A stretch of DNA of 55,653 nt from a virus (taxonomy: Duplodnaviria; Caudoviricetes). Positions 203-45,058 of this stretch are shown here, piece by piece. The stretch is taken from positions 1 to 55,653 of the IMG/VR virus record IMGVR_UViG_3300011114_000465. The stretch is one strand, 5' to 3'. Made by a program: the position numbers and the translations under genes. The notes under the pieces are model-generated. The model was given only the letters and a program-made list of their open reading frames with translations, did no database searches and was not told the DNA's origin. The first letter of the stretch is position 1. Each line of letters begins with the position of its first letter.

Positions 203-1091
203 AACCGTCACCGCAAACACTAGCGTCACCACGCCATTCGTCACTTCTGCTGCTGCAACATCGTTGCTTTTAAAGTCAGCAGGCACAACTGCCATCACGA
301 TTGACACAAGTCAGCGGGTCGGCATCAACGTCACGCCATCAACAGCCACAACAGCGCAGTTGCAAGTAACGGGCGGCACAACAAATGCAACCACACTTCT
401 CACGTCGTATTCACAAGCCACAGTTGCCTTAGTTCCAAAATCGTCTTCTGGATACTCGCTGGCTATTGCATCAGGCACAGGTGATCTTCCGCAGATACAG
501 GTCAGCACAAGTGGAACGGCGGCTGGAGCTTTGCTGATAAATCCTTATGGCGGCAATGTGGGGATTAACACATCTAGTGCGCCAGCAGGAAGTTTAGACG
601 TGGGCGGCAACGCATTCATGAACGGCTTGCGTTTGAATGGCGGAAATACAGCGGACACAATCTATCAGGCTACTGGAGATATTGGCATTTCAGTGGCTAC
701 TGCCGCAAACATAAAGTTCAATATCAACGGAACAAACCGTTTGACTTTAGATACCGTTGGCAGCTTAAACCTGTCTGGCTCGTACACCGAAGGCGTGGTC
801 GCAATTGGTAACTCAGGCACGGCTCAGACATTGTCCTTGGCCAACGGCACTGTGCAGACGGTCACCATGACAGGCAACTGCACGTTCACCATGCCAACAG
901 CCGTTGCCGGCAAATCGTTCATCTTGATCGTAAGCTCAGGCGCTGGCTCGTTTACAGGCACCTTCACTAGCGTGAAGTGGCCAAACAACGCAGCACCTAC
1001 ACTGACCACCACGGCAACCAGGTGGGACATTCTGACGTTCGTTTCCAACGGCACATCCTGGTACGGTAACTTTGCACAGGCATACGCATAA
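1..1091 (+). CDS. Tail fibre protein, 3' part (gene starts at 54989 and crosses the junction; ~547 aa if joined)
   Basis: Frame is continuous with 54989-55653; T/G/S/A-rich, with G(N/R)VGIN fibre repeats. Confidence 0.8.
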   Translation, partial: LSASSTVSGTGFSTYLASPPAIGGTAAAAGAFTTLSASSTVSGTGFSTYLASPPAIGGTAAAAGTFTTVTANTSVTTPFVTSAAATSLLLKSAGTTAITIDTSQRVGINVTPSTATTAQLQVTGGTTNATTLLTSYSQATVALVPKSSSGYSLAIASGTGDLPQIQVSTSGTAAGALLINPYGGNVGINTSSAPAGSLDVGGNAFMNGLRLNGGNTADTIYQATGDIGISVATAANIKFNINGTNRLTLDTVGSLNLSGSYTEGVVAIGNSGTAQTLSLANGTVQTVTMTGNCTFTMPTAVAGKSFILIVSSGAGSFTGTFTSVKWPNNAAPTLTTTATRWDILTFVSNGTSWYGNFAQAYA

Positions 1092-3580
1092 TGTTCTCAT
1101 CCAAGAATCAATTCCTAACAGGCGCTGGCGGCTACCAAATTCAGCGCAGTGTGCGTCTGCGCTCAAGTGCAAGCGGGTATTTCAATAGAACGCCTGGGAG
1201 TGCATCAAGCCGGACTACTTGGACGTGGAGTGGCTGGGTAAAACGTGGAGAGTTGTCAAGGTCAACTGTTGGTGGAGTAATAGGAATATTTGGCGCTGGA
1301 ACACTTGGGACGAGCCAATCAAATTTCAATTGCTACTTCAACAGCAACTTTGATATTTATTTGCAAGAAACGGTAAATAACGTATCAAATCAATTGATAT
1401 ATGAAACTACCTCTCTCTACCGTGACCCATCGGCTTGGTATCACATCATCATTGCGATGGATACAACGCAAGCCACTGCGTCAAATAGAACAAGAATATA
1501 TGTTAACGGCGTACTTGCACCCGGCTCGTTCTCCGTAACACCCGGACAAAACCAAACATTGTCTATCAACAATACCGTGCCTCAGTACATCGGTGGGGCG
1601 GGTGTCAATCCTCAAGCCTATGGCAACGTGCTTAGTTACCTTGATGGCTACCTCACTGAGATCAATTTTGTTGACGGCTACCCAACAGTATCAGGAACAA
1701 CCTATAACGCCACCACATGGGCGGCATTGAATGTTGCAACACTGTTTGGTGAAACAAACCCTGTCACTGGTGTATGGCAACCGAAAGCGTATATAGGCAC
1801 ATACGGCACAAACGGATATGAACTGAACTTTAGCGACAACTCCGCCTCTACTGCCGCAACCATTGGCAAAGACTACTCAGGCAACGGCAACAACTGGACA
1901 CCAAACAACATCAGCGTGACTGCTGGTGTTACATACGACTCCATGCTGGACACACCTACACCTTTTGCTGATGGCGGTAATGGCCGGGGGAACTACCCAG
2001 TCCTTAACCCAATCAAATTATTTGCCAATAATTTAACCATCACTGATGGCAATCTATCGGCGACGAATTCGTCGGCAACTGTCGCCACTCAAGCAGTTGC
2101 GTCCATGCGACTGCCGTCAACCGGCAAATGGTATTGGGAAGTCACAAACGTATCGGGCTCTGGATTGAACTGCTATGCTGGCATGGCTACTACTGAGGCG
2201 GTCGCCGATGGAAGCACGGTCACCAACAATATTGGCGGCTATCGATCAAATGGCGCAATAAATAATCTAGCTGGAACCGCGCAGACATCAGGCGCTACGT
2301 ATACAGCGGGTGACGTGATTGGCGTAGCAGTAGACGTTGATGCTGGCACTGTGCAGTTTTACAAAAACGGTGCAGCGCAAGGAGCAACCCCATCATTCAG
2401 TTTTACAGCCGGGACAATCATCGTTCCTGCGGTTGCCACTGACAACTCAGCAGGCACAAAAACCTTTGCAGCCAACTTTGGTCAACGCCCATTCAACAGC
2501 ACACCGCCCACTGGCTTTATTGCACTGAACACGCAGAACCTGCCTACGCCCAGTATCAGCAATGGCGCAAGCTACATGGCGGCTACTACATATACAGGTA
2601 CTGGGGCTTCTTTGGCTGTTACAAATACAGTCAATGGCATATCGTTTCAACCTGATTTTGTATGGACAAAAGTTCGCAACAACACTTACTCAAATCATCT
2701 TGAAGACGCTGTGCGCGGAGTCGGCCAGCGTTTGTTAAGTGATAGTACAGTAGTAGAAGCAACCGGTACAAATGGCAAACTGACAGCATTTAATTCAAAT
2801 GGATTTACGCAAGATGGCGGCGTAGAAGTTGGCGCATCTGCTGGTACTTACGTTGCTTGGCAATGGAACGCTGGCGGCTCAACTGTAACCAACACCAGCG
2901 GAACAATTTCAGCACAAGTAAGAGCAAATGCAACTGCTGGCTTTAGCGTGGTGACGTATACAGGCACAGGTGCTAACGCTACTGTTGGTCATGGCTTGGG
3001 TGTTGCGCCTAAGATGATAATACTTAAACCTAGAAGTATTGTTAGTTCATGGATTGTTTGGCACACCGCATTCGCTGGCACTGAATACATTGTCTTGGAA
3101 TCAACTGCCGCAAAAGCAACTTTGGCGGCTATGTGGAACAGCACAACTCCAACCAGCAGTGTTTTCAGCATTGGAACAAATGCCAACGTCAGTCAAAATG
3201 CAGCAACTTTTGTAGCCTACTGCTTTGCCGCAGTAGCTGGATACTCTGCATTTGGTAGCTACACAGGCAATGCAAGCACTGATGGGCCTTTTGTGTACAC
3301 AGGATTTAGACCGAGGTTTGTAATGTGGAAAAACGCATCCGCAGTAGGAGATTGGCAAATTTTTGATACATCTCGCAATCTATACAACTTAACAAACCTT
3401 GACCTTCGCCCCAATCTTTCGCAAGCCGAAACCACTCAAGCGACCACTAACCAGCCCTTAGATTTTTTATCAAACGGTTTTAAGATTAGAGGCAGTGGAG
3501 CAGGCGGCAACGGAAGCGGCAACACCATAATCTACGCCGCATTTGCCGAAAACCCATTCAAAAATTCACTTGCGAGGTAA
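1091..3580 (+). CDS. Tail/receptor-binding protein with LamG (ConA-like) and SPRY domains
   Basis: TWTWSGWVKR, DPSAWYHII, GKWYWEV, GDVIGVAVD motifs; follows tail fibre. Confidence 0.8.
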   Translation: MFSSKNQFLTGAGGYQIQRSVRLRSSASGYFNRTPGSASSRTTWTWSGWVKRGELSRSTVGGVIGIFGAGTLGTSQSNFNCYFNSNFDIYLQETVNNVSNQLIYETTSLYRDPSAWYHIIIAMDTTQATASNRTRIYVNGVLAPGSFSVTPGQNQTLSINNTVPQYIGGAGVNPQAYGNVLSYLDGYLTEINFVDGYPTVSGTTYNATTWAALNVATLFGETNPVTGVWQPKAYIGTYGTNGYELNFSDNSASTAATIGKDYSGNGNNWTPNNISVTAGVTYDSMLDTPTPFADGGNGRGNYPVLNPIKLFANNLTITDGNLSATNSSATVATQAVASMRLPSTGKWYWEVTNVSGSGLNCYAGMATTEAVADGSTVTNNIGGYRSNGAINNLAGTAQTSGATYTAGDVIGVAVDVDAGTVQFYKNGAAQGATPSFSFTAGTIIVPAVATDNSAGTKTFAANFGQRPFNSTPPTGFIALNTQNLPTPSISNGASYMAATTYTGTGASLAVTNTVNGISFQPDFVWTKVRNNTYSNHLEDAVRGVGQRLLSDSTVVEATGTNGKLTAFNSNGFTQDGGVEVGASAGTYVAWQWNAGGSTVTNTSGTISAQVRANATAGFSVVTYTGTGANATVGHGLGVAPKMIILKPRSIVSSWIVWHTAFAGTEYIVLESTAAKATLAAMWNSTTPTSSVFSIGTNANVSQNAATFVAYCFAAVAGYSAFGSYTGNASTDGPFVYTGFRPRFVMWKNASAVGDWQIFDTSRNLYNLTNLDLRPNLSQAETTQATTNQPLDFLSNGFKIRGSGAGGNGSGNTIIYAAFAENPFKNSLAR

Positions 3581-3583
3581 CAC

Positions 3584-4015
3584 ATGTTTTTACTCAACGG
3601 CAACCCACTACCCATCGACACCCCCTTTGAGATCGACGGCACTCAGTACCCATCCAACTGGCTACGCCTGACATCCATCGAAGAAAAGAACGCGGTTGGC
3701 ATCACCGAGGTTGCAGACCCTGAACACTACGACGACCGCTTCTACTGGGGCGTAGACAACCCCAAAGACTTGGCCGGTCTCAAAACCATCTGGACCGCCC
3801 AGGTTAAAGACACCACCAACAAGCTCTTGGCCGCGACTGACTGGATGTACATCCGCAAGTTGGAACGCAACGTAGACGTGCCTGCGGCCACGGTAACATA
3901 CCGCGCGGCAGTCATTACCGAATGCACCAGGTTGATCGCAAGCATCGATGCTGCCACCGACGTACCTGGTTTGATCACCGCCGTAACAACACAAACCTGG
4001 CCTGAAAGTGCGTAA
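3584..4015 (+). CDS. Tail fibre assembly/chaperone-like protein
   Basis: LLAATDW..R and terminal WP motifs; position after fibre genes. Confidence 0.6.
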   Translation: MFLLNGNPLPIDTPFEIDGTQYPSNWLRLTSIEEKNAVGITEVADPEHYDDRFYWGVDNPKDLAGLKTIWTAQVKDTTNKLLAATDWMYIRKLERNVDVPAATVTYRAAVITECTRLIASIDAATDVPGLITAVTTQTWPESA

Positions 4016-4212
4016 TGGAAAACAACCTTGAAAAAGACTTTGCCGTGCATGAGGCAATTTGCGCTCAACGCTATGAAGCCATCGAAGCAAAACTGGAAGC
4101 CGGTAAGCAGCGCATGAAGATGATAGAGATTCAACTCTATATCGTGATCGGCGCTATCTTGTTTGGCCCAGGTGTTGCTGCTGACATCGTGAAGAAGTTG
4201 TTGGGGCTGTAA
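4015..4212 (+). CDS. Small membrane protein (coiled coil + C-terminal TM), holin/antiholin-like
   Basis: HEAICAQRY motif, one TM; start of lysis cassette. Confidence 0.55.
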   Translation: MENNLEKDFAVHEAICAQRYEAIEAKLEAGKQRMKMIEIQLYIVIGAILFGPGVAADIVKKLLGL

Positions 4213-4216
4213 CGAT

Positions 4217-4924
4217 GTGGACCCCATATCGCTATGCCTTCTTGCTGCTGGATTAGTTAAGCAAATCCAGGCTGGGTGCGACCTTTATCGTGAGGCGAAA
4301 ACCCAGTTCATCCAGGTTAAGAAGACGGCTGACGAAGTCATAGCGATCGGTAAAGAAGCCCAGGGTTTCTTTACCAAGTTGGTTCAGTTTTTCAGTCCTG
4401 CGCCAGCAAAGCCCTCCAGTCCGGTTGCGGGCAAGCCCGCAGCAAAGAAAAAAGAAAAGTTCGTCGAAGTCGACGAACAACAAATCCTCAACGATGTCGT
4501 AGCCCGGCTCATCGAGTTCTTCCACCTTCAGGAGCAGCTCGCGGCTCACATACGCGAGGAGGAAGAAAAGTCACGAACTGTGTACGACCCCAACGCCAAC
4601 CTGATGGAAGCGGCGATCAAGAGGGTCAGGGCGCAGGACCAGATGGACCAGCTTGTCATCACCATAAGAGAGGCGATGACCTGGAACGCTCCGCCGGAAC
4701 TTGGTGCCCTGTACAGCAAGGTATTCGAGATGCGTGAAATTGTTGGTGCTGAACAGGAGGCTGCCAGGCTGGCGCAAGAATCAATTGCTAAAAGGAAGCG
4801 ATGGCAACGTCAGCAAAGAGAGGCGGACCGCAATCTAAAAATCGGAGCCAGCCTCCTGACTTTGGCTCTTATCGGATACCTGTGGATGTGGCTCCTGTGG
4901 GTCCAACACGCGAGGACACTTTGA
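4217..4924 (+). CDS. Coiled-coil membrane-anchored protein, lysis cassette
   Basis: 235 aa, MDPIS start, C-terminal TM. Confidence 0.6.
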   Translation: MDPISLCLLAAGLVKQIQAGCDLYREAKTQFIQVKKTADEVIAIGKEAQGFFTKLVQFFSPAPAKPSSPVAGKPAAKKKEKFVEVDEQQILNDVVARLIEFFHLQEQLAAHIREEEEKSRTVYDPNANLMEAAIKRVRAQDQMDQLVITIREAMTWNAPPELGALYSKVFEMREIVGAEQEAARLAQESIAKRKRWQRQQREADRNLKIGASLLTLALIGYLWMWLLWVQHARTL

Positions 4925-5154
4925 TGGGCGTACTGGGTTGGGTTCTTGCTGTGATTCTTGTGGCGTTCATGTTGCCCTTGCTTGGCTTTTTGTATCTGGA
5001 CATTTTGGAAGCTAAGCATGAGGCCAAAGCTCAACTGGAGCAGGTCCAAAAACTTAGACGCGAAATTGAAAAACAACAGCGGGACAATCGAAAGACAAAT
5101 GAGTTTTCCGACAACCCACTTTTTGACCGAAGGAGTAAGCGTGAACATTTTTGA
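4924..5154 (+). CDS. N-terminal TM + coiled-coil protein (76 aa)
   Basis: ATG overlaps upstream TGA; MGVLGWVLAVILVAFMLPLLGFLY hydrophobic segment. Confidence 0.6.
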   Translation: MGVLGWVLAVILVAFMLPLLGFLYLDILEAKHEAKAQLEQVQKLRREIEKQQRDNRKTNEFSDNPLFDRRSKREHF

Positions 5155-10765: not shown

Positions 10766-13700
10766 ATGGCCCTTGATTTTTCCAAGTACGGCACGCCGGT
10801 TGAAGACCAAGACGAGCAACCCGATTTTTCAAAATTCGGCACGCTGGTAGAAGACGCTCGCCGTGAGCTGTCGCCAGGGTCAAAACCATCTACCGCTGGT
10901 GCAGGTCGTGGGAGCGTCAACCCGCCAAGTGTTGAGGCCCGCGATGACCGTGGAATCATTCAACGCGTTGGCGATTTTTTGAGGCCAGAATACAAAAGCG
11001 TTTTAGAAGGCGTTAAACCTACACCTCAAGAAACGCAAGCTGAGCTTGATCGTCGGCTATCTTATGGCGCAGGCCCCATTAGCCGTGAAACCGTAGCTAA
11101 GGCTGACTTTTCGCGTAGCGGTATGCTGGTCACTGATGACAAGACTGTCAACAAAGTGGCTGCCGCCATGCAGCAAAAAGGTCAGCCAAGTTTTGCTGAT
11201 TTTATTGAACGCGCAAATGACCCATCAGTTGTTCGGGCTGCCCGCGAAGCAAAGGCCGACGAGTTTAGAACTGCGGGTGAGTGGGCTGTCGATACGTTGT
11301 CTGGCTTGGCTCAGGGCGGGACTAGCCTGGTCCAGTTGCCCACCAACATCATTGCCCCTGGAAGCGTTCTTGCTCAATCTTTACGGGATACCCAAAAAGA
11401 ATTGCAAGCCCAAGAATCGAGCGTGCTTAAAGCGCAACGAGACCGTTTGCGCGAGCGTGTGGAAAATGAAGAAGGCTTTCTTGGAAAATACTTTGCCACG
11501 GTTGAAAGCCTTGTAACAAACCCCGCACTCAGCTTATCCGAAGCCACCAAACAAGTACCCAACTTTTTGGGTGTGATGGGGTTGGCCAAAGTGGGTGGAG
11601 TCCTGGCAGGCGAAACCGTAGGCTTGGCCACACGCGCCAGCCCAACGATTGCCCTTAGCGAAGCCATCAGCGGTAACGCCCTTCAAACCAGTGCTCGCAT
11701 GGCGGGTACAACCGCTGGCGGTTTGACGGCTACCACAATCATGACCAGTGGTGACGCTGCTGGGAATGTGTATGAAACACTCATTGATCCAAAGAAAACG
11801 CCGCGAAGCCTTTGGGAACAAAACCCGGACTACCAAAAACTCATTGCCGCAGGTAAAAGCCCCGCGCAAGCAATTGACGAAATAGCTACGGCCAAGGCTC
11901 GCCTAGCCGCTTTGATTGTTGCGCCTTTAGGTGTTTTTGGCTTTATGGGTGCTGAAGCAACAATTGCTTCTAGGGGCGCAGGAAAGATTTTGTCAGAAGT
12001 GGCAACGCCCAAAGGCGCGGCTAAGGTGTTTGGCAAAGAACTACTTGGCGAACAGGTCGAAGAAGGCGGCACACAGTTTGGCGGAAACGTCATCACTCAA
12101 ACGGTCAACCCCCAACAGAAATTGATGGAGGGTGTGCCCGAAGCAATGGCGACAGCTGCCGTTACATCGGCCCCATATTCAGCCGTTGCCGTTGGCCAAC
12201 AAGTTCGTGATGAATTAAATCGCCCGGCCCCTGTTGTTGATCAACAGGTTGACGCATTAGTTCGCCGGGCAATGGATGTTCAGTCATACGACGCAAACAT
12301 CATCAGCCCCACACAGACCGCGCGTATCAACCGCGCACAGACTGTCCTGAACCAGGCAACCAACGTCGACGACATGACCGGCGCGGCCAATGAGCTGGCC
12401 GGTAATCTCAACGAGATGTTGGTGCCAAACAACGCGGTCACACCGCTGCCGCCGGTTCTCAACGAGCCAGCTCCTACCAATGAACCCCTGCCTCCAGGCC
12501 CAGCACTGACCAATGAACCTCTGGCCCTGACCCCCGGTCCAGAGGTCAATGCGGAAACAGAACAACAGTTTGGCCTGGACAAGTTGCGCATGAACGCGCC
12601 ACGCCCGCAAAGCATCCAGGGTAAACCCGTTGCCAGCTTGACAGACGATGAGCTGTCAGCGACCATTGCCGACTCGAACGTCTCAGCCATCACCCGCAGA
12701 AGCGCAGAGGTTGAGCTGAAGGCCCGCCAATCGGAACAAACGCCAAATGCACCAGCAGCCACTACAACAGCCACCACGGCCATCCCGGATGTCACGGGTA
12801 CCCTTGGGTCAACCCCAGTGCGGGGTGGCGCTGCTGCACCGGTTAGCGAGCTCCCTGGAGCCGATACAGCAAGAGCGAATGCTCAACGATCTATTGATCG
12901 ATGGGCAACCTCCCAGGGCGTGGCTTCTCCGATCCAGTTCAACCCAGCACCCCCAGAAGAAACATCAGCCGTAAGCCAAATTGGCCAGGCGCTGAACAGC
13001 CAGTTCGGCACGCGCCTGTTTGCGTATCACGACACAAACGTGGCTTCGCCCAACGGTGTGGCCATTGCCGGCTCGGGATTTGTCAATACCGCCAACGTCG
13101 CAATCAATGTTGGCCGCACGTCGCTACATGAGTTCAAACACACAATTGAGCAGATCGCAAAGGTTGAGACCGATGCTGGATTAACCAACACCCCGGCCCA
13201 GCAATTCACTGCCCAACTCGATAGCATCTTTGACGACATGACCGATGAGGGCAAACGCGCCTACATCGAGAACTTCTTGCACCGAGATGACCTGGCTGGA
13301 ATCACGGACCCGGCTGCACGCGAAGCACGCATTCAGCAATACATGACCGCGCCGTTGACCCGGTCAGAGATGACTGCCGATTTCCTGGGCAACCGCGCGA
13401 CTGATAAAAAGTTTTGGGCCGATGTGGCCAAGGCTGACCCTCAAGGCTTCAAAGGCTTTGTCGACAAGTGGTTGAAGATCATCGACGGCCTGCTTGAGCG
13501 TTTGCGTGGCACATCAAAGCAAGGCAAATATGAATCCGCCCGGGTCGACAAATACGTTCGAGATTTGAACCGTGCAAAGATGACTGCCCGCGATGCGCTG
13601 GTTGCATACCGCAAGGGTACACTCCAGCAATTTGAAGGAGCCACCAATGGACCAGCCAACAATGCCGTTGCCGGAAGTCAAAACGTACCAGGAGTTGCAA

Positions 13701-16534: not shown

Positions 16535-19500
16535 ATGGCTAATTGCACGTATCGGTTCACCGACGCGGACGGCAAAGAGCAAGTCATCGAAGGCCAAGCC
16601 GCGTTCAAAGCGTACCTGGCCAGCGGTGGCCTGGAACACTTGCTTCCATCCAGAGCTGTAGAAAAAGCTGATGAAGGCAGCCCCTTCACGGTTGCTTTTA
16701 GCAATAAGCAGACACCGGTTTCCGAATGGCCGGAAACTGAAAAACACATAGGCCGAGTTACAAGCTACGAAGCAAAGCCGGGTGAGTTCATTACCGTGTT
16801 ACGCCTGGCCAATATGGAAGGACTAGATAACGCCAACGCGGCCAGCGTAGAAGGTTTGTATACCTACCTGTCAATGGTTGATGATAGAGAATCCGCAGCT
16901 GGCGGAGAAGCTAAAGACTCTGACACCATCTATGCTTACAAGGTTCAAGTTCCTGAAAAAGGATTTAAGGAGTACGCCGCAAACCGTGGCGGAAAAGCAA
17001 TCGGTTTGCAAGATGAGGTTACCGGTGCAGGGCGCATGCCTGCAAAATGGGGCGGCTTCTGGTATTCATTTCCAGTAGGAACAAAGGCCGAGCTGTTAGG
17101 TTCAATACCCCTGGCCACCGCGCGGTCCACGTTAAAGGAAATGGCGGACTCTGATAATTTCGATTACGCGGGATCAGAGCTTGGGGCCAAGGCTTTGTAT
17201 GCCGCATTTAACACGGAAAGCAGCCCGCTGTTTAGCCGGTCTCAAAACGTGCCCGAGCTGGAGCCGGAAGACGTACTCAAGCCAAGCACGATTGCAGCCG
17301 CTGAGGCAGCCATCAAGCGTTACAAAAAGGCCGAGGCACCCGATACCCTTACCGCCAAACAACGGGCCGATGGTGAGGCTTTGCTCAAGCCCATGTTCGA
17401 TGGGGCCACACGCAATAAGGCAGACTTCGACAAGACCCTGGACCAGATTGCCGAAGGCTTGGGTGGCTACGCCAAGAAGCCGGGCATCAAAGGTTTGACC
17501 AGGGCCGTGACCAAGTTGATCACCGAGAACGGCAACGATCCAACCACGATGAAGGATTTGCTGCGCGGCACGATCGTGGTCAATACCTTCCAGGAAGCCC
17601 AGGAAGCGATCAATCAGATCGGCAAGGCGTATACCTTCGATCGGATTAAAAACCGCTTGGCTGTCGATCTGACAAGCCCTGACGGTACTGTGCTCAAGGG
17701 TGTTCCTTTGTCAACCGGATACCAAGACATCCTGACAAACGTGACCCTGGAAGATGGCACGGTTGCAGAGATTCAGATCAGCACGCCCGAGATGTTGGCT
17801 GCCAAGCATTTAGGCCATGAGGTTTATGCGTTTACAAGGGAGATGCCAGAAAGCCCTATTAAGGCCAAGATGGTTGACCTTCAAAAGCAGATTTACTCTG
17901 AGGGGTACGACGCTTATTTGGCGCGTGAAGCAAAGGCTTTAAAGACCCGTTCAAATTCAGCCTTGTCGACTGGGTCTCCTTTTTCCCGCACGTCCGAAGG
18001 GTTGCGCGGCTCAGGTGCTGGCAACCAGGCGGTGGCAGAACGCCAGCCAGGTGCGACTGTCACTGGCACCTCGTTCCAGTCAAAGAACATGGTGCCTGGT
18101 GGTAAGGATTTGAAGTCGAAGTCCATGTCACCAAGTATACCTGAAAGCATTGGTATCAACGTAAACCAGGACGGAAACAATAAATACGCCGACAAAATCG
18201 TTGACGGCGAGAAGACCTTAGAGACCCGCGCGTCTGATTCGTTGCGCCCATACGTCGGCAAACGGGTAGCCATTGTCCGTACTGGCGAAGGCCCGGCCAA
18301 GGCAATTGGCGCAGTGACGATTGGTGAGCCTATCAAGGTCACCACACAAAAACAGTTTGATCAATACCGCAATCAAACCCTGGTGCCCAAAGATTCCAAG
18401 TTCGACATCGCTCCAGGTGGTGTGAAGTATTTGTACCCCCTGGAAAACCCTGTTCGCTATGAGACTGAGCGCGATGTTGGCCAAGGCATCGTGGCTCGTA
18501 AGGTCATCGTGCCGGTAACCCGGGCTGCGCAAAAGAACGCAGCAGCCAGTCGCGTGGACAACGTATCAGCTGATCGATTCAAACGAACCGAACAACTCCA
18601 GCAAGCCGTCGCCGATCTGCAAGATGGCAAGATTACACGCACCGAGTACAACCGCATGGTCGACCAGGTGCGCCCGGTCTACCCATACAAAGAAGTACCC
18701 GCAGTCACGGCGGTCAAAGACGCTCGATACGCCCTGGCCACAGGCAAAGGCCAAAGCCCAGAGAAGGCAGCCAAGTACGGCCTGCCTGCCATGACATTCA
18801 AGCAAGGCGATTGGGCACAGTTGCGTTTGGACATTCCGTCATATCAGCTGCATGACACCTGGGTGGTCAGCGTACACACGCCCAAGTCAACCAACCGCGA
18901 AGTCCAAGCTGCATACGACGCTGGTCCAGTGGTCGGCTATGAGTCCGTGGCCGCGTTGAAAGACGTGACCTTTGGCATGAACCAAAAGGCCGCAGCCAAG
19001 ATAGCTACAGGCACCGCCAAGGGCACGATCGCTACCATGCTTGGCAAGTGGTCACCCATCAGCAGGGCCGACGCTAAGGCCCGCGCTGATGCGGCCCTCA
19101 ATGACCCAGCCTGGGTACAGGTTGGCATGGACCCATTCCGCCACAGCTACTTCTACAACCGCGACACCATGCAGCCGATCGTTCGCGCTGATGAGGTGAT
19201 CCAGATCGGCCCCTTGGTCTTGGCCAAGAACCCAGGATACAGCGAGGACGTTGACATCACTGGTGCCCCTTTCGCGTTTAGCAAGCGTGAAGAGATTGTC
19301 CAGATCGCGGACGACGCTGCACGCCAGGCCGTGTTCCTCCAGCAAAAGGCCGAAGAGGCTGGCTACAAAACAGTCGATGATTTTGTTGACAACGACTACA
19401 ACAAATTTGTTGAAGCAGCTAAGCAATGGCGTGAAGAGAACCCGGCTGAGATGATGTTCCAGAAACGTCAGACCAACCCGCCGGAATTAAAACGCTGGTT

Positions 19501-22500
19501 CAGAGACAGCAAAGCGGTTGATGCTAACGGCGAGCCGATGGTTCTTTACCGAGGCGAACATGGCGAAAGCGGGGACATGGATTTCCAATCACGCGTTGCG
19601 TCGCTATCGTTCGGCACCAAAGAGCTGGCCAATTTGTATGCTGAAAAACCAAATAGGTTTGGCGATCGGACCGTCAACCCTCGCGTCATTCCTGTGTATG
19701 TGCGTATTGAAAATCCTTTGATCAATACCCCGAATGACCCGTTCATTGAGTTGGGCGATGTGATCGATAAACTGGGTATGGATGTGGCCAAGTCAGCCGC
19801 ACACAAACTGTATGACGACATCTATAACTCAGGCCCTTGGTTTAGCACGTACTCAGAAAAGTATGAAGGCATTGACGCGCTGATTAAAAAAGACCCCGAG
19901 GCTTTGCGCAATTTGTATGTGTTGGCCTGGAAGTTTTTTGATGATTTTGAATTTGTAAATGCGGCCAAGAAGGCGGGATACGATGGCGCTATTCATGCGG
20001 AATACGGCGCTCATTCTGAAAACGAACAAGGCGCAGAGTACAAAGTGTTTGACCAATCCCAGGTCAAGTCAGCCATCGGCAACAACGGCGAGTTTGATGA
20101 GAACAACCCAGACATCCGCTTTGCACGCAAGCCCCTGGGCCGTGAGACTGAGGGTTGGATATTCAGCCGCGATGAGTTGGGTCGCTTCCGCTTCGGCGCT
20201 GGCGCAAAGGCTTATCGATATGCAGCAGACGTGGCCAACATCGTTCTTGGCAAGATTAACTTGAAGCCAGTCAGCCCTGAGCTGTCACGCGCCCTGCGCA
20301 AGATGCGCGTTGAAATAGATAAGGCTCAAAACTTGACGGTCGATGTGGCCAAGAATCTCAAAGACTTGCCCAAGCAAGAACGCGACATGATCAGCGATGT
20401 GATTGAAGGCGAACTCAAAGCTGGTATTCGCCCACCAAAACGCGTGCTTGAATTAGCTGCGTCTATGCAGTCGATCATGTCTGAACAGACAGCAGAGCTG
20501 GTGCGCCTGGGCATGCTTTCGCCCCAGGCCGCTGGCCGCTGGGATGGCAAGTACCTGCCACGCTTCTACGAACAAAAGCTCGGCGACGAAACCAAGGCAT
20601 GGATGAAAGCGGTCAAGAATTTGCTGGCCCGCAAGACAACCATGCAAGGTATTCGCGGCAGCAGTCTGAAAGCACGGGGCATGTTCCAAAACGTACCAGT
20701 GGCTGAGCTTGATGACTGGACCAACGAAGGCTGGCAAGTTCGAGATGACAACTTTGATCCAGCGGTCGATGACACCATTACGATCTGGCGCGATTACACG
20801 CGCGATGAACGCGACGACATGGGTGAGATTCGTGATGCCATGTTCCGCTTTGTCATGGGCTACAACAAGAGCCAGCGCGACATTGCTCTTGGTCGTTTGT
20901 ATGAAAACCTAGCCGCCAACTACGGCAAAAAACGTGAAGAGCCTGGCTACGTACAAGTACCTGCGACCAAAGTCGAAGACACCATGGTCCCCCGATACGG
21001 CAAGCTCGCGGGCAAATGGGTGCCAAAAGAAATTCTTCATCAACTCGAAGGCTTTGATCAATCGATGCAAAACGATTTGATCAAGATATACCTCAAGGGT
21101 TTGTCGATGTGGAAAGAAGGCAAGACTGTTCTCAACCCAGTCGCTCACGCAAACAACGTGCTGTCGAACTTGACGATGGCCCACTTTGCTGGCGTGTCTT
21201 ACTGGGATACACACAAGTACGTTGGCGCAATTGCCGACCTGGTCAAAGGTAAGGCCATGGTTGACGAAGCAAGGGAAGCCGGTTTATTTGGTGCCACGTT
21301 TGATCGCGCCGAGCTGATGAAAGTCATGCCTGAAGAACTCAAAGCCATGGCGCAAATGACCGAGTCAGCCGTTGCTCGCAACGTCGACCGTCTGTGGAAC
21401 GCGCTGTCTTTGTTCTTGCGCAAACCAATGGGCGCAGCATACGGTGCTGAAGACGAATTCTTCCGGTACATGATTTATCGCGATGCACGCAATCGCGGTT
21501 TAGGCGTGGATGATTCAGTTGACTATGCGCAAAAGTACATCTTCACATACGACGATTTGCCAAAGACCGCACGCATCATTCGCGACATGCCTCTTGGTTT
21601 GCCTTTCTTCAGCTACACGTTCAAGGCCATTCCGGCTTTGGCCAACACCGCTTTGGAACACCCGTTCCGTTATGCCGCGCCAGCGGTTGCCTTGTACACC
21701 GCAAACGCAATGATGTATGCAATGGCTGCAAGCCTGGGCGGTGGTGATGACGAAGACTGGTGGACCGTGATTCGTCGTTACATGACAGACGAAGAGTTCC
21801 GCAACAAGGCCAAGGCCATGGAGAAGCAAGAGCGTCAGTTCTTGCCGGATTGGATGAAGGGCGCAAGCCTGTCATTGGGCACTGAAAAAACCATACGCTT
21901 AGGCATGGACGACGTGACGAACTTACCGGTCTTCCTGGACGTAAGTCGCATTTTCCCGGGCGGTGATTTGTTTGATGCTCACAACAATGCGGGTGGCGTT
22001 CCCATGCTGGCACCGTTGACACCGAACAACCCAATCTTGACTTCTATTGTTGCGCTTAGTTACAACAAAGACACATTCCGAAATAAAGAGATTACCCTTA
22101 AAACCGACACCGACGCAGAGGCCGCGCAAAAACGTGCGGCCTGGGCTTGGAAACAGGTTACACCTGCAATCTCTTTGGGCAACACATTGTTTGAACGTGC
22201 AATGAATGTGATCGCCAACAGCACCGGCGAACCAGTTGACGTGGGCCTGGCCGAGTACACCGGCATCGGCGCAGATGGTTTGCCCATCCAACCTAAATAC
22301 GCAGCGATGCAAACCGTGGGTATTAAGGCGCGACCTATTGACCTTGATACATCAGAGAAGATTCAAGAGTCGCAAACCAAGGCGATGATACGAGACTTGG
22401 ATACTCAGATGCGCAAGCTCAAGCGTTTGGAAGGCAAAGGCGCAATCACCCCCGAAACATCCGAGCGTGAACGTGAGAAATTGCGTCAGAAGAAACAGTT

Positions 22501-22543
22501 TCTAAAAGAGGGGCTGACTGTTGAGGGGGAGGAGAAAGACTAA
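16535..22543 (+). CDS. Giant polyvalent virion protein 2: RelA/SpoT-like synthetase, ASCH, unknown domains, ART-like domain, large helical C-terminus
   Basis: IKGLTRAVTK..DLLRGTI..GYQD..EIQI..HEVY; IVDGEKTLETR; GEPMVLYRG..GYDG..QVKSAIGNNGEFD. Confidence 0.8.
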   Translation: MANCTYRFTDADGKEQVIEGQAAFKAYLASGGLEHLLPSRAVEKADEGSPFTVAFSNKQTPVSEWPETEKHIGRVTSYEAKPGEFITVLRLANMEGLDNANAASVEGLYTYLSMVDDRESAAGGEAKDSDTIYAYKVQVPEKGFKEYAANRGGKAIGLQDEVTGAGRMPAKWGGFWYSFPVGTKAELLGSIPLATARSTLKEMADSDNFDYAGSELGAKALYAAFNTESSPLFSRSQNVPELEPEDVLKPSTIAAAEAAIKRYKKAEAPDTLTAKQRADGEALLKPMFDGATRNKADFDKTLDQIAEGLGGYAKKPGIKGLTRAVTKLITENGNDPTTMKDLLRGTIVVNTFQEAQEAINQIGKAYTFDRIKNRLAVDLTSPDGTVLKGVPLSTGYQDILTNVTLEDGTVAEIQISTPEMLAAKHLGHEVYAFTREMPESPIKAKMVDLQKQIYSEGYDAYLAREAKALKTRSNSALSTGSPFSRTSEGLRGSGAGNQAVAERQPGATVTGTSFQSKNMVPGGKDLKSKSMSPSIPESIGINVNQDGNNKYADKIVDGEKTLETRASDSLRPYVGKRVAIVRTGEGPAKAIGAVTIGEPIKVTTQKQFDQYRNQTLVPKDSKFDIAPGGVKYLYPLENPVRYETERDVGQGIVARKVIVPVTRAAQKNAAASRVDNVSADRFKRTEQLQQAVADLQDGKITRTEYNRMVDQVRPVYPYKEVPAVTAVKDARYALATGKGQSPEKAAKYGLPAMTFKQGDWAQLRLDIPSYQLHDTWVVSVHTPKSTNREVQAAYDAGPVVGYESVAALKDVTFGMNQKAAAKIATGTAKGTIATMLGKWSPISRADAKARADAALNDPAWVQVGMDPFRHSYFYNRDTMQPIVRADEVIQIGPLVLAKNPGYSEDVDITGAPFAFSKREEIVQIADDAARQAVFLQQKAEEAGYKTVDDFVDNDYNKFVEAAKQWREENPAEMMFQKRQTNPPELKRWFRDSKAVDANGEPMVLYRGEHGESGDMDFQSRVASLSFGTKELANLYAEKPNRFGDRTVNPRVIPVYVRIENPLINTPNDPFIELGDVIDKLGMDVAKSAAHKLYDDIYNSGPWFSTYSEKYEGIDALIKKDPEALRNLYVLAWKFFDDFEFVNAAKKAGYDGAIHAEYGAHSENEQGAEYKVFDQSQVKSAIGNNGEFDENNPDIRFARKPLGRETEGWIFSRDELGRFRFGAGAKAYRYAADVANIVLGKINLKPVSPELSRALRKMRVEIDKAQNLTVDVAKNLKDLPKQERDMISDVIEGELKAGIRPPKRVLELAASMQSIMSEQTAELVRLGMLSPQAAGRWDGKYLPRFYEQKLGDETKAWMKAVKNLLARKTTMQGIRGSSLKARGMFQNVPVAELDDWTNEGWQVRDDNFDPAVDDTITIWRDYTRDERDDMGEIRDAMFRFVMGYNKSQRDIALGRLYENLAANYGKKREEPGYVQVPATKVEDTMVPRYGKLAGKWVPKEILHQLEGFDQSMQNDLIKIYLKGLSMWKEGKTVLNPVAHANNVLSNLTMAHFAGVSYWDTHKYVGAIADLVKGKAMVDEAREAGLFGATFDRAELMKVMPEELKAMAQMTESAVARNVDRLWNALSLFLRKPMGAAYGAEDEFFRYMIYRDARNRGLGVDDSVDYAQKYIFTYDDLPKTARIIRDMPLGLPFFSYTFKAIPALANTALEHPFRYAAPAVALYTANAMMYAMAASLGGGDDEDWWTVIRRYMTDEEFRNKAKAMEKQERQFLPDWMKGASLSLGTEKTIRLGMDDVTNLPVFLDVSRIFPGGDLFDAHNNAGGVPMLAPLTPNNPILTSIVALSYNKDTFRNKEITLKTDTDAEAAQKRAAWAWKQVTPAISLGNTLFERAMNVIANSTGEPVDVGLAEYTGIGADGLPIQPKYAAMQTVGIKARPIDLDTSEKIQESQTKAMIRDLDTQMRKLKRLEGKGAITPETSEREREKLRQKKQFLKEGLTVEGEEKD
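17914..18126 (-). CDS. Putative antisense nested gene (70 aa), candidate antitoxin of RelA/SpoT-like domain
   Basis: TATACT 7 nt before ATG (leaderless layout); globular-looking aromatic-rich product opposite a low-complexity linker. Confidence 0.65.
   Translation of the reverse strand: MDFDFKSLPPGTMFFDWNEVPVTVAPGWRSATAWLPAPEPRNPSDVREKGDPVDKAEFERVFKAFASRAK
18134..18139 (-). promoter_or_regulatory. -10 box for leaderless antisense transcript
   Basis: TATACT on minus strand; no correctly spaced -35 found. Confidence 0.5.
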
Positions 22544-43118: not shown

Positions 43119-43580
43119 ATGGGAAAGAAAACCGGAGCCACTCGATTGGCCGAACTAGCAGGTGCGCCGCCCAGGCTCGCGTCCGTTGAGGACCTTGAGG
43201 CTGCTGGCCCAGCTCCAGCTCGCAGGCATGCAAAGCAAACCTCCAGCAAGAAGCCTATGGGCATCAACCTCAAGGCGGTGGCCGAGGCGCTGAAGGAAGC
43301 TGGCATGGACCCGGCGGTCGAGATGATCAACATCTTGAAACGTCAGGTGCCAGTACGCGATGCGAATGGCAAGCCGCGCATTGACCCCGAAACCAAAAAG
43401 CCAATGATGGTTGATGCCATCGACGCAGACACCAAGCTGCGCGTGCTCAACGAGATGCTGCAATACACGCAGCCAAAGCTCAAGTCTGTCGAGATGAAAG
43501 TCTCCGGCAACCTGGAGCTCACAGCCGAACAGCTCGACAATCGATTGGCCATGTTCTTGTCAAAGGCTGCACGCAAATGA
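43119..43580 (+). CDS. Terminase small subunit candidate
   Basis: Immediately upstream of terL; LQYTQPKLKSVE motif. Confidence 0.6.
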   Translation: MGKKTGATRLAELAGAPPRLASVEDLEAAGPAPARRHAKQTSSKKPMGINLKAVAEALKEAGMDPAVEMINILKRQVPVRDANGKPRIDPETKKPMMVDAIDADTKLRVLNEMLQYTQPKLKSVEMKVSGNLELTAEQLDNRLAMFLSKAARK

Positions 43581-45058
43581 AGATTGACGACCTCGACCTC
43601 TCGAAACTTGATTTGTCATTGCTCAATCACGAAGAGAAGCTCGAAGTCTATGAGCTGCTGCGCATTCGCGAAGTTCGCGCCAAGCGCAACCGCCTGGCCA
43701 CCTACAAGCCATACGCCAAGCAGGTCGATTTCCACACAGCTGGCGCGTCGTTCCGTGAGCGTTTGTTCATGGCCGGTAACCAGTTGGGCAAGACATGGGC
43801 CGGTGCATTCGAGACAGCGATGCACCTGACTGGCCGCTACCCTGCCTGGTGGAAGGGCACTCGATTCCCCTATGCGATCCGCGCAATGGTTGGCTCCGAA
43901 TCAGCTGAACTGACGCGCAAAGGCGTGCAGCGTTTGCTGCTTGGCCCGCCTGAAGTTCGCGACGAATGGGGCACTGGATCAATTCCGCATGAGTGCATCC
44001 GCGACACCAGCATGAAGCAAGGCGTGCCGGACGCAGTGTCCAGCATCGTCGTGCGTCATGAGTGTGGCGAGGATTCGGTCATTCAGTTCAACTCATACGA
44101 CCAGGGCCGCACCAAGTGGCAGGCCGACACGGTTAACTGGGTGTGGTTCGATGAGGAGCCACCGCTTGGTGTTTACTCTGAGGGCCTGACTCGCACTCAG
44201 GCAGTCGGCGGTCAGGTGTGCGTCACCTTCACACCACTGCTGGGCATGTCCGATGTGGTCAAGCGTTATCTGATCGACAAGCCAGCAGGCACCAACGTCA
44301 CCAACATGACGATCTACGATGCTGAGCACTACACGCAAGAGCAGCGCGAAGCCATCATCGCCGCGTACCCTGAGCACGAACGCGAAGCACGGGCAAAGGG
44401 CATTCCTATCCTGGGCAGTGGCCGCATCTTCCCGGTTGCCGAAGAGGCAATCAAGGTGCGAGCTTTCCCGATCCCAGCGCACTGGCCGCGCATCACCGGC
44501 ATCGACTTCGGTGTGGACCACCCGACCGCTGTTGTCTGGCTGGCATGGGACCGAGACAGCGATACGATCTACGTCACTGACTGCTACCGCAAGAGTGAGC
44601 CTGGCATCGGTGGCCACGCCATGGCCGTTCGGGCCAGGGGCGATTGGGTGCCAATGGCCTGGCCGCATGACGGCTTGCAGCGTGACAAGGGCGGGTCGGG
44701 TGAGCAGTTGGCCAAGCAGTACCGCGACCAAGGATTGAACCTGTTGAAGGACAGAGCTACATTCGAGGACGGCAGCAACGGCGTGGAGGCCGGACTGTCT
44801 GAGATGCTGACACGCATGCAGACCATGCGCCTTCGTGTGTTCTCGCACCTGGAAGATTGGTTCGAGGAGTTCCGCTTGTATCACCGCAAAGACGGCCTGG
44901 TCGTCAAGCAAGCCGACGATTTGCTGTCAGCCACACGCTACGCCATCATGATGCGCCGGTTCGCCAAGACCCAGGAAGAAGCCGAAGTCCGCATCCGTGG
45001 CAACAAGATTCCCAACATCACGCCATTCGGCGTGTTCGACCCTGTGACTGGATACTGA
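43577..45058 (+). CDS. terL: Terminase large subunit, P22-like
   Basis: FMAGNQLGKT, WFDEEP, TFTP, GIDFG, DDLLSATRYA. Confidence 0.96.
   Translation: MKIDDLDLSKLDLSLLNHEEKLEVYELLRIREVRAKRNRLATYKPYAKQVDFHTAGASFRERLFMAGNQLGKTWAGAFETAMHLTGRYPAWWKGTRFPYAIRAMVGSESAELTRKGVQRLLLGPPEVRDEWGTGSIPHECIRDTSMKQGVPDAVSSIVVRHECGEDSVIQFNSYDQGRTKWQADTVNWVWFDEEPPLGVYSEGLTRTQAVGGQVCVTFTPLLGMSDVVKRYLIDKPAGTNVTNMTIYDAEHYTQEQREAIIAAYPEHEREARAKGIPILGSGRIFPVAEEAIKVRAFPIPAHWPRITGIDFGVDHPTAVVWLAWDRDSDTIYVTDCYRKSEPGIGGHAMAVRARGDWVPMAWPHDGLQRDKGGSGEQLAKQYRDQGLNLLKDRATFEDGSNGVEAGLSEMLTRMQTMRLRVFSHLEDWFEEFRLYHRKDGLVVKQADDLLSATRYAIMMRRFAKTQEEAEVRIRGNKIPNITPFGVFDPVTGY

Follow-up and report, generated by a model that had tools for sequence, protein, structure and literature searches.

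Three small open reading frames (ORFs), N1, N2 and N3, lie within the coding sequences of two giant phage proteins, each in an interdomain linker. They are found in IMG/VR record IMGVR_UViG_3300011114_000465 (Caudoviricetes), a phage genome of ~56 kb that was analysed at its full length of 55,653 nucleotides (the window). We consider it rather probable that all three are real overprinted genes and that N2 and N3 encode partners of polyprotein domains beside them. At least two of the nested products appear to be partner proteins of the preceding enzyme domain, and these are possibly inhibitors. The host ORFs, the nested ORFs and the signals in front of them are listed below.

10766-16030, plus strand: ORF A, giant multidomain protein of 1754 amino acids (aa), host of N1 and N2
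16535-22543, plus strand: ORF B, polyvalent protein of 2002 aa, host of N3
13635-13640, plus strand: Shine-Dalgarno (SD)-like AAGGAG, 6 nt 5´ of the N1 start
13647-13823, plus strand: N1, 58 aa, +1 frame of ORF A, from ATG to stop
15685-15690, plus strand: SD-like AGAGGG, 5 nt 5´ of the N2 start
15696-15884, plus strand: N2, 62 aa, +1 frame of ORF A, from ATG to stop
18134-18139, minus strand: TATACT, 7 nt 5´ of the N3 ATG in the clade of the window
17914-18126, minus strand: N3, 70 aa, antisense to ORF B, with ATG at 18126-18124 and stop at 17916-17914

The nested ORFs and their putative initiation signals had been proposed in an earlier note on this DNA and are present at the exact positions claimed there. 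The three peptides are mutually unrelated (hhalign probability ≤1.3%), and Pfam and PHROGs gave no meaningful match to any of them. Small genes placed wholly within giant ORFs escape standard gene callers, which bears out, as the usual outcome, the expectation that callers would miss them. The bare existence of N1, N2 and N3 is not above chance. Within 31,158 nt of long ORFs there are 71 alternative-frame ORFs of at least 58 codons that start with ATG, 23 of which are in the +1 frame. By synonymous resampling, the probability of an open frame with a start, given the host protein and its codon usage, is 0.18 for N1, 0.17 for N2 and 0.12 for N3, and the probability of an open frame given the host protein is 0.57, 0.41 and 0.26, respectively. 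That alternative-frame ORFs of this size are common speaks for a reading in which none of the three is translated and their conservation results from constraint on the nucleotides themselves (by RNA structure, recombination joints or host-frame motifs, processing sites for example), and for N3 also from low-complexity codon composition. The same reading is favored by the N3 frame being the one most often open, by the N3 stop being fixed by a conserved host Tyr codon, and by a recurring PSG/PGG-type motif at the end of the host linkers that mirrors the N-terminus of the antisense peptide.

It is conservation that lifts all three ORFs above chance. IMG/VR relatives comprised 54 loci for ORF A and 27 loci for ORF B, at 44–93% protein identity; the 24-row and 26-row alignments contain one contig twice under two locus ids, and unique counts were computed separately. 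All three nested frames are open in the codon alignments while the host identity over them drops to 0.4–0.6. N1 is open in 24/24 aligned rows, which correspond to 19 unique peptides, and each of these has a start codon (16 ATG and 3 GTG), with AAGGAG or a close variant 5´ of it in most. For N2, ATG is kept in 38/38 unique variants from 54 loci, and a motif count places a purine-rich SD before 34 of the 38. N3 is open with ATG and zero indels over its 70 codons in 10/10 rows; the ATG is present in 11/11 unique variants, and GGAGG lies 5 nt upstream in seven. The earlier note had named stops in the homologous frames, or loss of their start signals, as evidence that would count against its proposal. 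Instead the frames stay open and the starts are kept, and the alternative-frame ORF, its start, the SD and the peptide persist while the host linker diverges.

For control, all alternative-frame ORFs in ORFs A and B that start with ATG, span at least 45 codons and have at least 5 unique homologues were taken, 32 in total. N2 alone keeps both start and frame fully (28/28 each, at a mean host identity of 0.53), and the majority of the 31 other ORFs fail to stay open. Two further measures discriminate poorly. Whole stop-to-stop runs (open in 5/19 for N1 and 11/28 for N2) are a non-discriminating test because the runs reach beyond the true starts and ends, and the mean alternative-minus-host identity per cluster separates spurious ORFs in conserved domains but fails in linkers.

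The frame under constraint can be read from the codon positions. Diversity was computed per host codon position, and an unbiased scan in 20-codon windows covered ORF A (335 windows) and ORF B (363 windows). In the flanks, diversity at the host wobble position is 0.44–0.56, well above that at positions 1 and 2. Over the nested ORFs as a whole, diversity at host positions 1/2/3 is 0.37/0.32/0.32 for N1 and 0.37/0.26/0.30 for N2. The N1 bins at 13676-13735 give 0.50/0.35/0.23 and 0.44/0.43/0.19, so that variation is highest at host position 1 and the host wobble position is down to 0.19–0.23, compared with 0.54–0.58 in the upstream flank; the N2 bin that begins at 15716 gives 0.22/0.04/0.06. In the cores of N1 and N2, variation in the +1 frame peaks at its third position and is lowest at its second. 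Because host position 1 is the third position of the nested frame and host position 3 its second, the pattern fits constraint on the nested frame at N1 and N2. At the starts themselves, the T of the N1 and N2 ATG falls on a host wobble base, and the third base of the N3 ATG (G on the minus strand) is paired with one. Among the 698 windows, the host wobble position is not the most variable solely at 12761 (a tie), in four N1 windows and in eight N2 windows, and N1 and N2 make up all clear cases in which wobble variability is lost. The +1 ORF at 12747-12974 (75 codons in a hypervariable Pro/Gln-rich linker of ORF A) provides a negative control. Its wobble diversity is 0.55–0.66 throughout with no dip, and it is read as a chance ORF for want of such a dip, despite the marginal contact with the scan at 12761.

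Substitution rates in the two overlapping frames lead in the same direction. A simple OLGenie-style count over sequence pairs, not a phylogenetic model, was used to estimate dSN, the rate of changes that are synonymous in the host frame and nonsynonymous in the nested frame, and the corresponding rates dNS (nonsynonymous in the host frame only) and dNN (nonsynonymous in both). For each ORF, dSN is lower inside than in the two flanks:

N1: 0.34 inside, 0.65 and 0.64 in the flanks
N2: 0.32 inside, 0.63 and 0.67 in the flanks
N3: 0.21 inside, 0.33 and 0.51 in the flanks

The host dNN/dSN over N1, N2 and N3 is 0.86, 0.77 and 0.71, whereas it is 0.08–0.46 in the flanks. When 219 windows were scanned, the three lowest dSN values of the +1 frame were at 15716 (N2), 13646 (N1) and 15671 (N2); in the frame of N3 the lowest were at 17975, 17885, 17840 and 17930, and seven of the eight lowest windows overlap N3. 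By these substitution patterns N1, N2 and N3 are shown to be conserved and evidently protein-coding frames under purifying selection, and the host frame over them is shown to be a relaxed low-complexity linker that seemingly need only stay open.

The position of N1 and N2 in the +1 frame, each terminated by a stop, would also fit programmed ribosomal frameshifting, which would yield shortened forms of the giant protein that end in an alternative C-terminus. In several variants the +1 frame is free of stops for 5–55 codons 5´ of the ATG, and purine-rich SD-like elements can stimulate frameshifting. However, the ATG of N2 is kept in all 38 unique variants and a start codon of N1 in all 19. The frame is closed by a stop directly before the ATG in 4/19 unique N1 variants and in at least one N2 variant, and +1-frame stops lie 0–5 codons 5´ of most N2 starts (4–5 codons upstream in most variants). 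No conserved slippery site was noticed in the upstream strings, in which no dedicated search was made, and frameshifting is inapplicable to the antisense N3. Frameshifting is therefore regarded as extremely improbable, and N1 and N2 are better read as genes with starts of their own.

N2 is the best supported of the three. In every locus its start lies 2 nt past the last codon of an all-α domain of ORF A:

14438-15694, plus strand: all-α domain, ORF A residues 1225-1643 (419 residues), AlphaFold2 (AF2) model with a predicted local distance difference test score (pLDDT) of 85.8

The N2 peptide contains a conserved motif, QQPNLDQDQHDKWL, an amphipathic helix and a Ser-rich tail. A search of 1.84 billion proteins with the N2 profile retrieved 90 representative clusters at E≤1e-3, 27 of them at E≤1e-10; the proteins in these clusters are mostly 47–120 aa long, and many begin at the same Met. 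The profile has no meaningful sequence match in the PDB, and no IMG/VR loci related to the longer N2-containing proteins P0083 and P0089 were found. N2 is almost certainly a real gene. Some family members (P0064, P0088, P0094 and P0097) share a C-terminal motif, LT.EKA...A.GF, that has no counterpart in the N2 of the window; an ORF behind a 31–35%-identical copy of the all-α domain (L069:1465-1695) ends in this motif too.

N2 adjoins 42 of the 46 unique copies of the all-α domain, and among the four exceptions, two carry an N2-like ORF that is weak or divergent. The adjacency is independent of what lies downstream, as the host ORF either ends 110–122 codons further on (22 unique variants) or runs for 188–1546+ codons (16 variants). 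A predicted complex of N2 with the all-α domain, for which each chain was given a custom alignment of 29 rows from the same loci, reached ipSAE scores of 0.87/0.87/0.83, compared with 0.00 for the best of three controls, with a partner pLDDT of at least 76 and a contact agreement of at least 91%. The contacted domain residues (121–129, 211–216, 232–237, 385 and 402–406) are invariant columns of the alignment and form the most conserved face of the domain, and the N2 side of the predicted contact consists of its conserved motif and helix. In the numbering of the complex model, the predicted contacts include N2 residues 20, 28, 31, 32 and 35 opposite domain residues 160–168, 180, 193 and 211. 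An AlphaFold-type prediction of domain and nested ORF had been suggested earlier as a check, and for N2 the model gives a confident interface. On this model, N2 fairly likely binds the neighboring all-α domain.

The all-α domain itself is less easily named. It had been labeled HhH-glycosylase-like, a label that finds no Pfam, PDB sequence or PDB fold match even with a confident AF2 model: no PDB sequence match was obtained, and Foldseek gave no PDB fold match at E≤0.001. Among viral models, 15 BFVD folds match at E≤0.001, the top ones named 'Large polyvalent protein associated domain-containing protein'. A link to DUF7178 is faint (2/29 members in Pfam, best E 0.0036, plus a lead from the protein atlas). 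From its predicted fold, the domain looks like a large polyvalent-protein-associated domain that is distantly DUF7178-like.

N3 is located in the linker behind a domain of ORF B that resembles the toxin Tas1, and both are part of one block that is present or absent among relatives:

17372-17911, plus strand: RelA/SpoT-homologue (toxSAS-type, Tas1-like) domain, ORF B residues 280-459
17249-18142: presence/absence block, ORF B residues 239-536, comprising the Tas1-like domain, the linker and N3 with its start region

PF04607 is matched by 15/15 members of the domain alignment (best E 5.7e-7), with the window's own copy at 22.1 bits, under the 27-bit cut-off, and the domain profile matches Tas1 (PDB 6ox6_A) with an E of 6.3e-13. 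These two matches confirm the earlier label, RelA/SpoT-like. Tas1 is a (p)ppApp synthetase of the type VI secretion system that depletes ATP and is neutralized by the immunity protein Tis1, and toxSAS-type domains are a class that needs an immunity protein, as described in passages of PMC11782079. N3 adjoins 14 of the 18 unique copies of the RelA/SpoT domain; the other four are distant, and two of them have a different antisense ORF in the same place. In the relative L077, residues 1–238 (nt 3001-3780) abut residues 537–918 (nt 3781-4932), and the block is missing as a whole. In three ASCH copies that are more than 90% identical, both the RelA/SpoT domain and N3 are missing. Gain and loss affect the Tas1-like domain and N3 together, as one unit.

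The antisense arrangement was also recovered by a search that was blind to N3, in which metagenome contigs were searched by the RelA/SpoT domain alone. Two of the best 32 loci were incomplete. In each of the remaining 30, an antisense ORF of at least 45 aa ends within 90 nt of the domain end, and in 24/30 this is an ORF of 55–90 aa with SD and ATG, an arrangement found in 95/4216 background antisense runs (2.3%). The SD-led arrangement is seen across 32–88% domain identity. The host frame extends at least 214 codons past the antisense ORF in 16 of the 17 loci checked, and more than 400 codons in 14, so that the two genes truly overlap. By sequence, at least four groups can be told apart among the antisense ORFs behind RelA/SpoT domains. 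The N3 profile recognized the ORF of L102 (domain identity 37%) with 28.7 bits; on iteration it did not recruit the other antisense groups (13 candidates and 20 N3 copies, 0 false decoys of 1811), and the antisense ORFs of L047 and L035 have no significant likeness to N3. A protein atlas search of N3 gave no usable match. The N3 protein has been called by gene callers in 15 clusters, and its AF2 model contains four strands and a helix (pLDDT 75.8). Compared by shuffle z, the antisense peptide scores above the host linker in five pairs (11.9 vs 4.9, 23.1 vs 7.8, 8.9 vs 5.0, 23.7 vs 14.7 and 21.3 vs 9.7).

Absence of translation is now very improbable as an explanation of N1, N2 and N3. Nucleotide constraint is at odds with a codon-periodic switch to the +1 frame that occurs at N1 and N2 only among 698 windows and is missing from the control ORF at 12747-12974, with conserved starts and SDs, the SD-led antisense form being rare in the background, with antisense peptides that retain more similarity than the host linkers, and with an N2 profile that retrieves 90 clusters and yields a confident complex prediction. 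N3 is very probably a real gene. Two observations concern its 5´ end. In the window the frame continues open in the 5´ direction as far as a GTG at 18345 (143 aa; 18127-18345, minus strand), and the start of one called metagenomic protein, P0001 (119 aa), is likewise an upstream ATG. Other clades do not preserve this extension, and it is from the Met of 18126 onward that the peptide is conserved.

N1 lies in the linker between a region with an HExxH motif and the next conserved domain of ORF A, and its conserved core covers about the first 35–40 residues:

13127-13141, plus strand: HExxH motif HEFKH, ORF A residue 788
13826-14380, plus strand: conserved domain after N1, ORF A residues 1021 to ~1135, plus linker

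The domain after N1 had been called ART-like. None of its 19 members matches any Pfam family at E≤0.1, and a PDB profile search returned only a designed protein (E 0.0016) and flagellin (E 0.19), neither of them meaningful; the label is not sustained. N1 is found solely where the upstream and downstream domains abut. From the conservation of its start and the periodicity over its core, N1 can with good confidence be taken as a real gene.

The three ORFs could be genuine genes without being partners of the neighboring domains. The linkers would then merely be tolerant of overprinting, and the products would act elsewhere, in anti-defense, regulation or assembly. The relaxed host frame over all three fits this, as it makes the linkers permissive for new genes, and so do the other +1 candidates in linkers of relatives (below), the fusion of N2 modules to unrelated modules in metagenomic proteins, the lack of a link between N1 and either flanking domain, and the lack of likeness between N3 and Tis1. 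On the other side, the N2 complex is predicted with high ipSAE on the invariant face of the domain, N2 stands behind its domain in 42/46 unique copies whatever lies downstream, and an SD-led antisense ORF stands behind the RelA/SpoT domain in 24/30 loci down to 32% identity and is lost together with the domain. We regard a mere tolerance of the linkers as rather unlikely.

A number of observations weigh against the reading of N1, N2 and N3 as genes of which two encode domain partners. As to partnership, N1 is tied to neither neighbor, since it adjoins 19/30 copies of the downstream domain and 20/26 of the upstream domain, and nine loci that have the upstream domain without N1 showed no SD-led sense nested ORF there. 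The predicted partner of N2 is no recognized toxin (no informative Pfam, PDB sequence or fold match), and an inhibitor is one among several readings of the predicted contact. The mark set for the complex tool was reached by 58/80 solved complexes and 2/110 mismatched pairs, counts that are only roughly valid for N2 because custom alignments were used. N3 has no likeness to Tis1 by sequence or fold search: its profile found nothing better than E 0.25 in the PDB, and Foldseek of its model found nothing at E≤0.001. That model is of moderate quality, and the other four AF2 models have pLDDT values of 48–65.

As to coding, the periodicity test is blind for N3, because N3 and host codons have their third positions in common, and the antisense frame that it uses is open unusually often. 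The +1-frame dNN/dNS is biased and does not discriminate, as it is below 1 in the flanks also (0.55–0.76). The antisense dNN/dNS of N3 is 0.42 (confidence interval 0.28–0.69), compared with 1.11 and 1.09 in the flanks, but it is not the lowest of its frame in a wider scan and the measure is noisy. In two pairs, window-L047 and L094-L098, the host linker has a higher z than the antisense peptide. In L093:872-1105, on a contig of 1221 nt, a host-frame stop at 990 falls within the overlap while N3 is intact with GGAGG; this stop may be an assembly error, or the polyprotein may be split there. The expression signal is the weakest point of the window's N3, which lacks the GGAGG of other clades and has TATACT and a weak GGTGA in its place. 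A simple scan for σ70-like promoters on both strands of 13300-18600 found 0, against 3.0 expected. TATACT, spaced 7 nt from the ATG, had been proposed as a −10 signal; the element is present in the window, but with the empty promoter scan it is no more than a candidate signal.

The earlier proposal, that each effector travels as a cassette with an overprinted antidote, stands in part. N2 follows its domain (42/46) and the Tas1-like domain forms one block with N3, whereas N1 is tied to neither neighbor and the partner of N2 is no recognized toxin. That N3 neutralizes the Tas1-like domain is suggested by this arrangement at somewhat less than an even chance.

The reading that we favor runs as follows. 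N1 and N2 would be translated in the +1 frame from the mRNA that they share with ORF A, with ribosomes starting internally at the SD and ATG of each; being in sense orientation, they do not depend on a separate promoter. N3 would be read off the opposite strand, for which a minus-strand promoter would be needed. Each small protein would be the cis-encoded partner of a polyprotein domain, made where the coding of that domain ends. N2 would dock on the invariant face of the upstream all-α domain, and N3 would act as an immunity-like partner of the Tas1-like (p)ppApp-synthetase-type domain, silencing it until packaging or ejection. Domain and nested gene would move jointly as a cassette when polyvalent proteins are reshuffled.

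Additional nested ORFs were noted in relatives. A +1 family represented by L018:6152-6283 lies just before the all-α domain (8 unique variants, 7 with SD); the host wobble diversity over it is 0.07–0.23 vs 0.34–0.56 in the flanks, and the metagenomic proteins P0017 and P0019 carry its module fused ahead of N2. The +1 family of L036:4382-4738 (10 unique variants) shows a wobble dip of 0.23–0.38 vs 0.6–0.7. That of L032:9536-9724 (19 unique variants, 0.41–0.53 vs 0.58–0.68) precedes a homologue of the domain after N1, and its module is fused with that of N2 in P0049 and P0089. A +1 ORF of 146 aa that is not of low complexity ends before a homologue of the same domain in L074:294-731 and L079:2018-2458 (4 unique copies). 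Since modules occur as +1 ORFs in other linkers, three of them with wobble dips, overprinting may be general in the polyvalent family. A broader reading is that phage polyvalent proteins follow a general rule of design, by which each injected effector has its own inhibitor overprinted, in a second frame or on the opposite strand, in the linker behind it, and the free antidotes may also protect an infected or lysogenic cell against effectors injected by related phages. We hold this only tentatively; it is consistent with the nested candidates in relatives and with the at least four antisense groups behind RelA/SpoT domains. If true, effector and antidote would come from one stretch of DNA, be shuffled jointly and remain silent in the producing cell.

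The host proteins and their surroundings are those of a tailed-phage genome. ORF A and ORF B lie directly 3´ of a tail-fiber-like structural gene, and the window also codes for an amidase-type lysis protein and replication genes. Landmark genes are:

1091-3580: tail-fiber-like virion protein
43577-45058: large terminase
45794-48016: portal/adaptor

A ferritin-like gene (16039-16530, plus strand; PF00210 E 1.7e-16, rubrerythrin E 1.4e-6) stands between ORF A and ORF B and is an unusual neighbor for genes that adjoin a structural module. The whole ORF A protein has zero matches in Pfam and PHROG scans. ORF B contains ART-PolyVal at residues 996–1187 (Pfam E 5.6e-11, above cut-off), and its further Pfam matches are RelA/SpoT-like, ASCH (weak) and L5 gp82-like (below cut-off). 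From ART-PolyVal, the RelA/SpoT-like domain, HExxH and the polyvalent-domain fold matches, ORF A and ORF B are assigned to the polyvalent proteins in the sense of Iyer et al. (2017); each is, by its predicted content, a very large phage protein that joins several conflict-type enzymatic domains. ORF B is strongly modular. Blocks at about residues 239–536, 537–660, 660–920 and 980–1189 are present or absent between relatives (L062, L063, L065, L069, L070, L076, L077 and L079) with clean joins, and the protein is constant over its C-terminal 800 residues. Searched against phage records, 10766-22543 gave zero megablast matches and only distant partial matches in tblastn.

Genes of this kind would form a hidden class within giant ORFs. 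They would address the puzzle of how phages build and store toxin-type domains such as the Tas1-like one while the cell must supply ATP for DNA packaging, and a partner within the effector's own linker would keep antidote and toxin inseparable by recombination. In annotation, the linkers of polyvalent proteins would have to be screened for alternative frames that are conserved. Effector domains without known function would have specific binders or inhibitors ready in the nested proteins, and the loci would be a clean natural example of dual coding, in which a disordered linker is permissive for a second code in sense and in antisense frames.

Precedents exist for overprinted phage genes, for toxin-immunity pairs and for polyvalent proteins; linker genes that start at the domain end and travel with the domain were not found in our literature searches. 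These searches returned no description of nested genes in polyvalent proteins and no naming of DUF7178. Embedded phage genes include λ Rz1 inside Rz in the +1 frame, and φX174 E inside D and B inside A. As in these cases, a larger phage gene fully encloses a small one that has an SD and an ATG of its own, and both frames are under selection; unlike them, the host here is a giant polyvalent protein, the genes are in interdomain linkers, one is antisense, and at least N2 is a predicted binder of a domain in the protein that hosts it. Overprinting has been reviewed (PMC8227390 and PMC7017920). The polyvalent proteins of phages and conjugative elements, as presented in parts of PMC5512222, likewise combine ART-PolyVal, zincin-like HExxH, RelA/SpoT-type and associated domains that are shuffled; a term search of the available text of that paper (Iyer et al., 2017) returned 0 uses of 'overlap' and no nested ORFs.

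Known toxSAS toxin-antitoxin pairs include FaRel/ATfaRel and PhRel, according to PMC11782079 and PMC7229694. Similar to Tas1-Tis1 and the toxSAS pairs, the ORF B domain matches Tas1 and PF04607 and has a small conserved gene adjacent to it that is inherited together with it. In contrast to Tas1-Tis1, N3 is antisense and overlaps the effector ORF, the effector is internal to a phage polyprotein, and the pair is a putative one. In pore-forming colicins, the immunity gene is on the opposite strand at the 3´ side of the toxin gene, in the intergenic region, and is not known to overlap the toxin coding sequence. N3 is likewise on the opposite strand at the 3´ side of a toxin-type domain, but it overlaps coding sequence. 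Polymorphic toxins have a C-terminal toxin domain that is followed by a separate cognate immunity ORF (PMC3482391). Here, too, domain and partner gene resemble a mobile unit between large proteins, and the partner begins where the coding of the domain ends; unlike in polymorphic toxins, the domain is internal and the polyprotein continues to the next domain, so that the partner gene is written over the linker.

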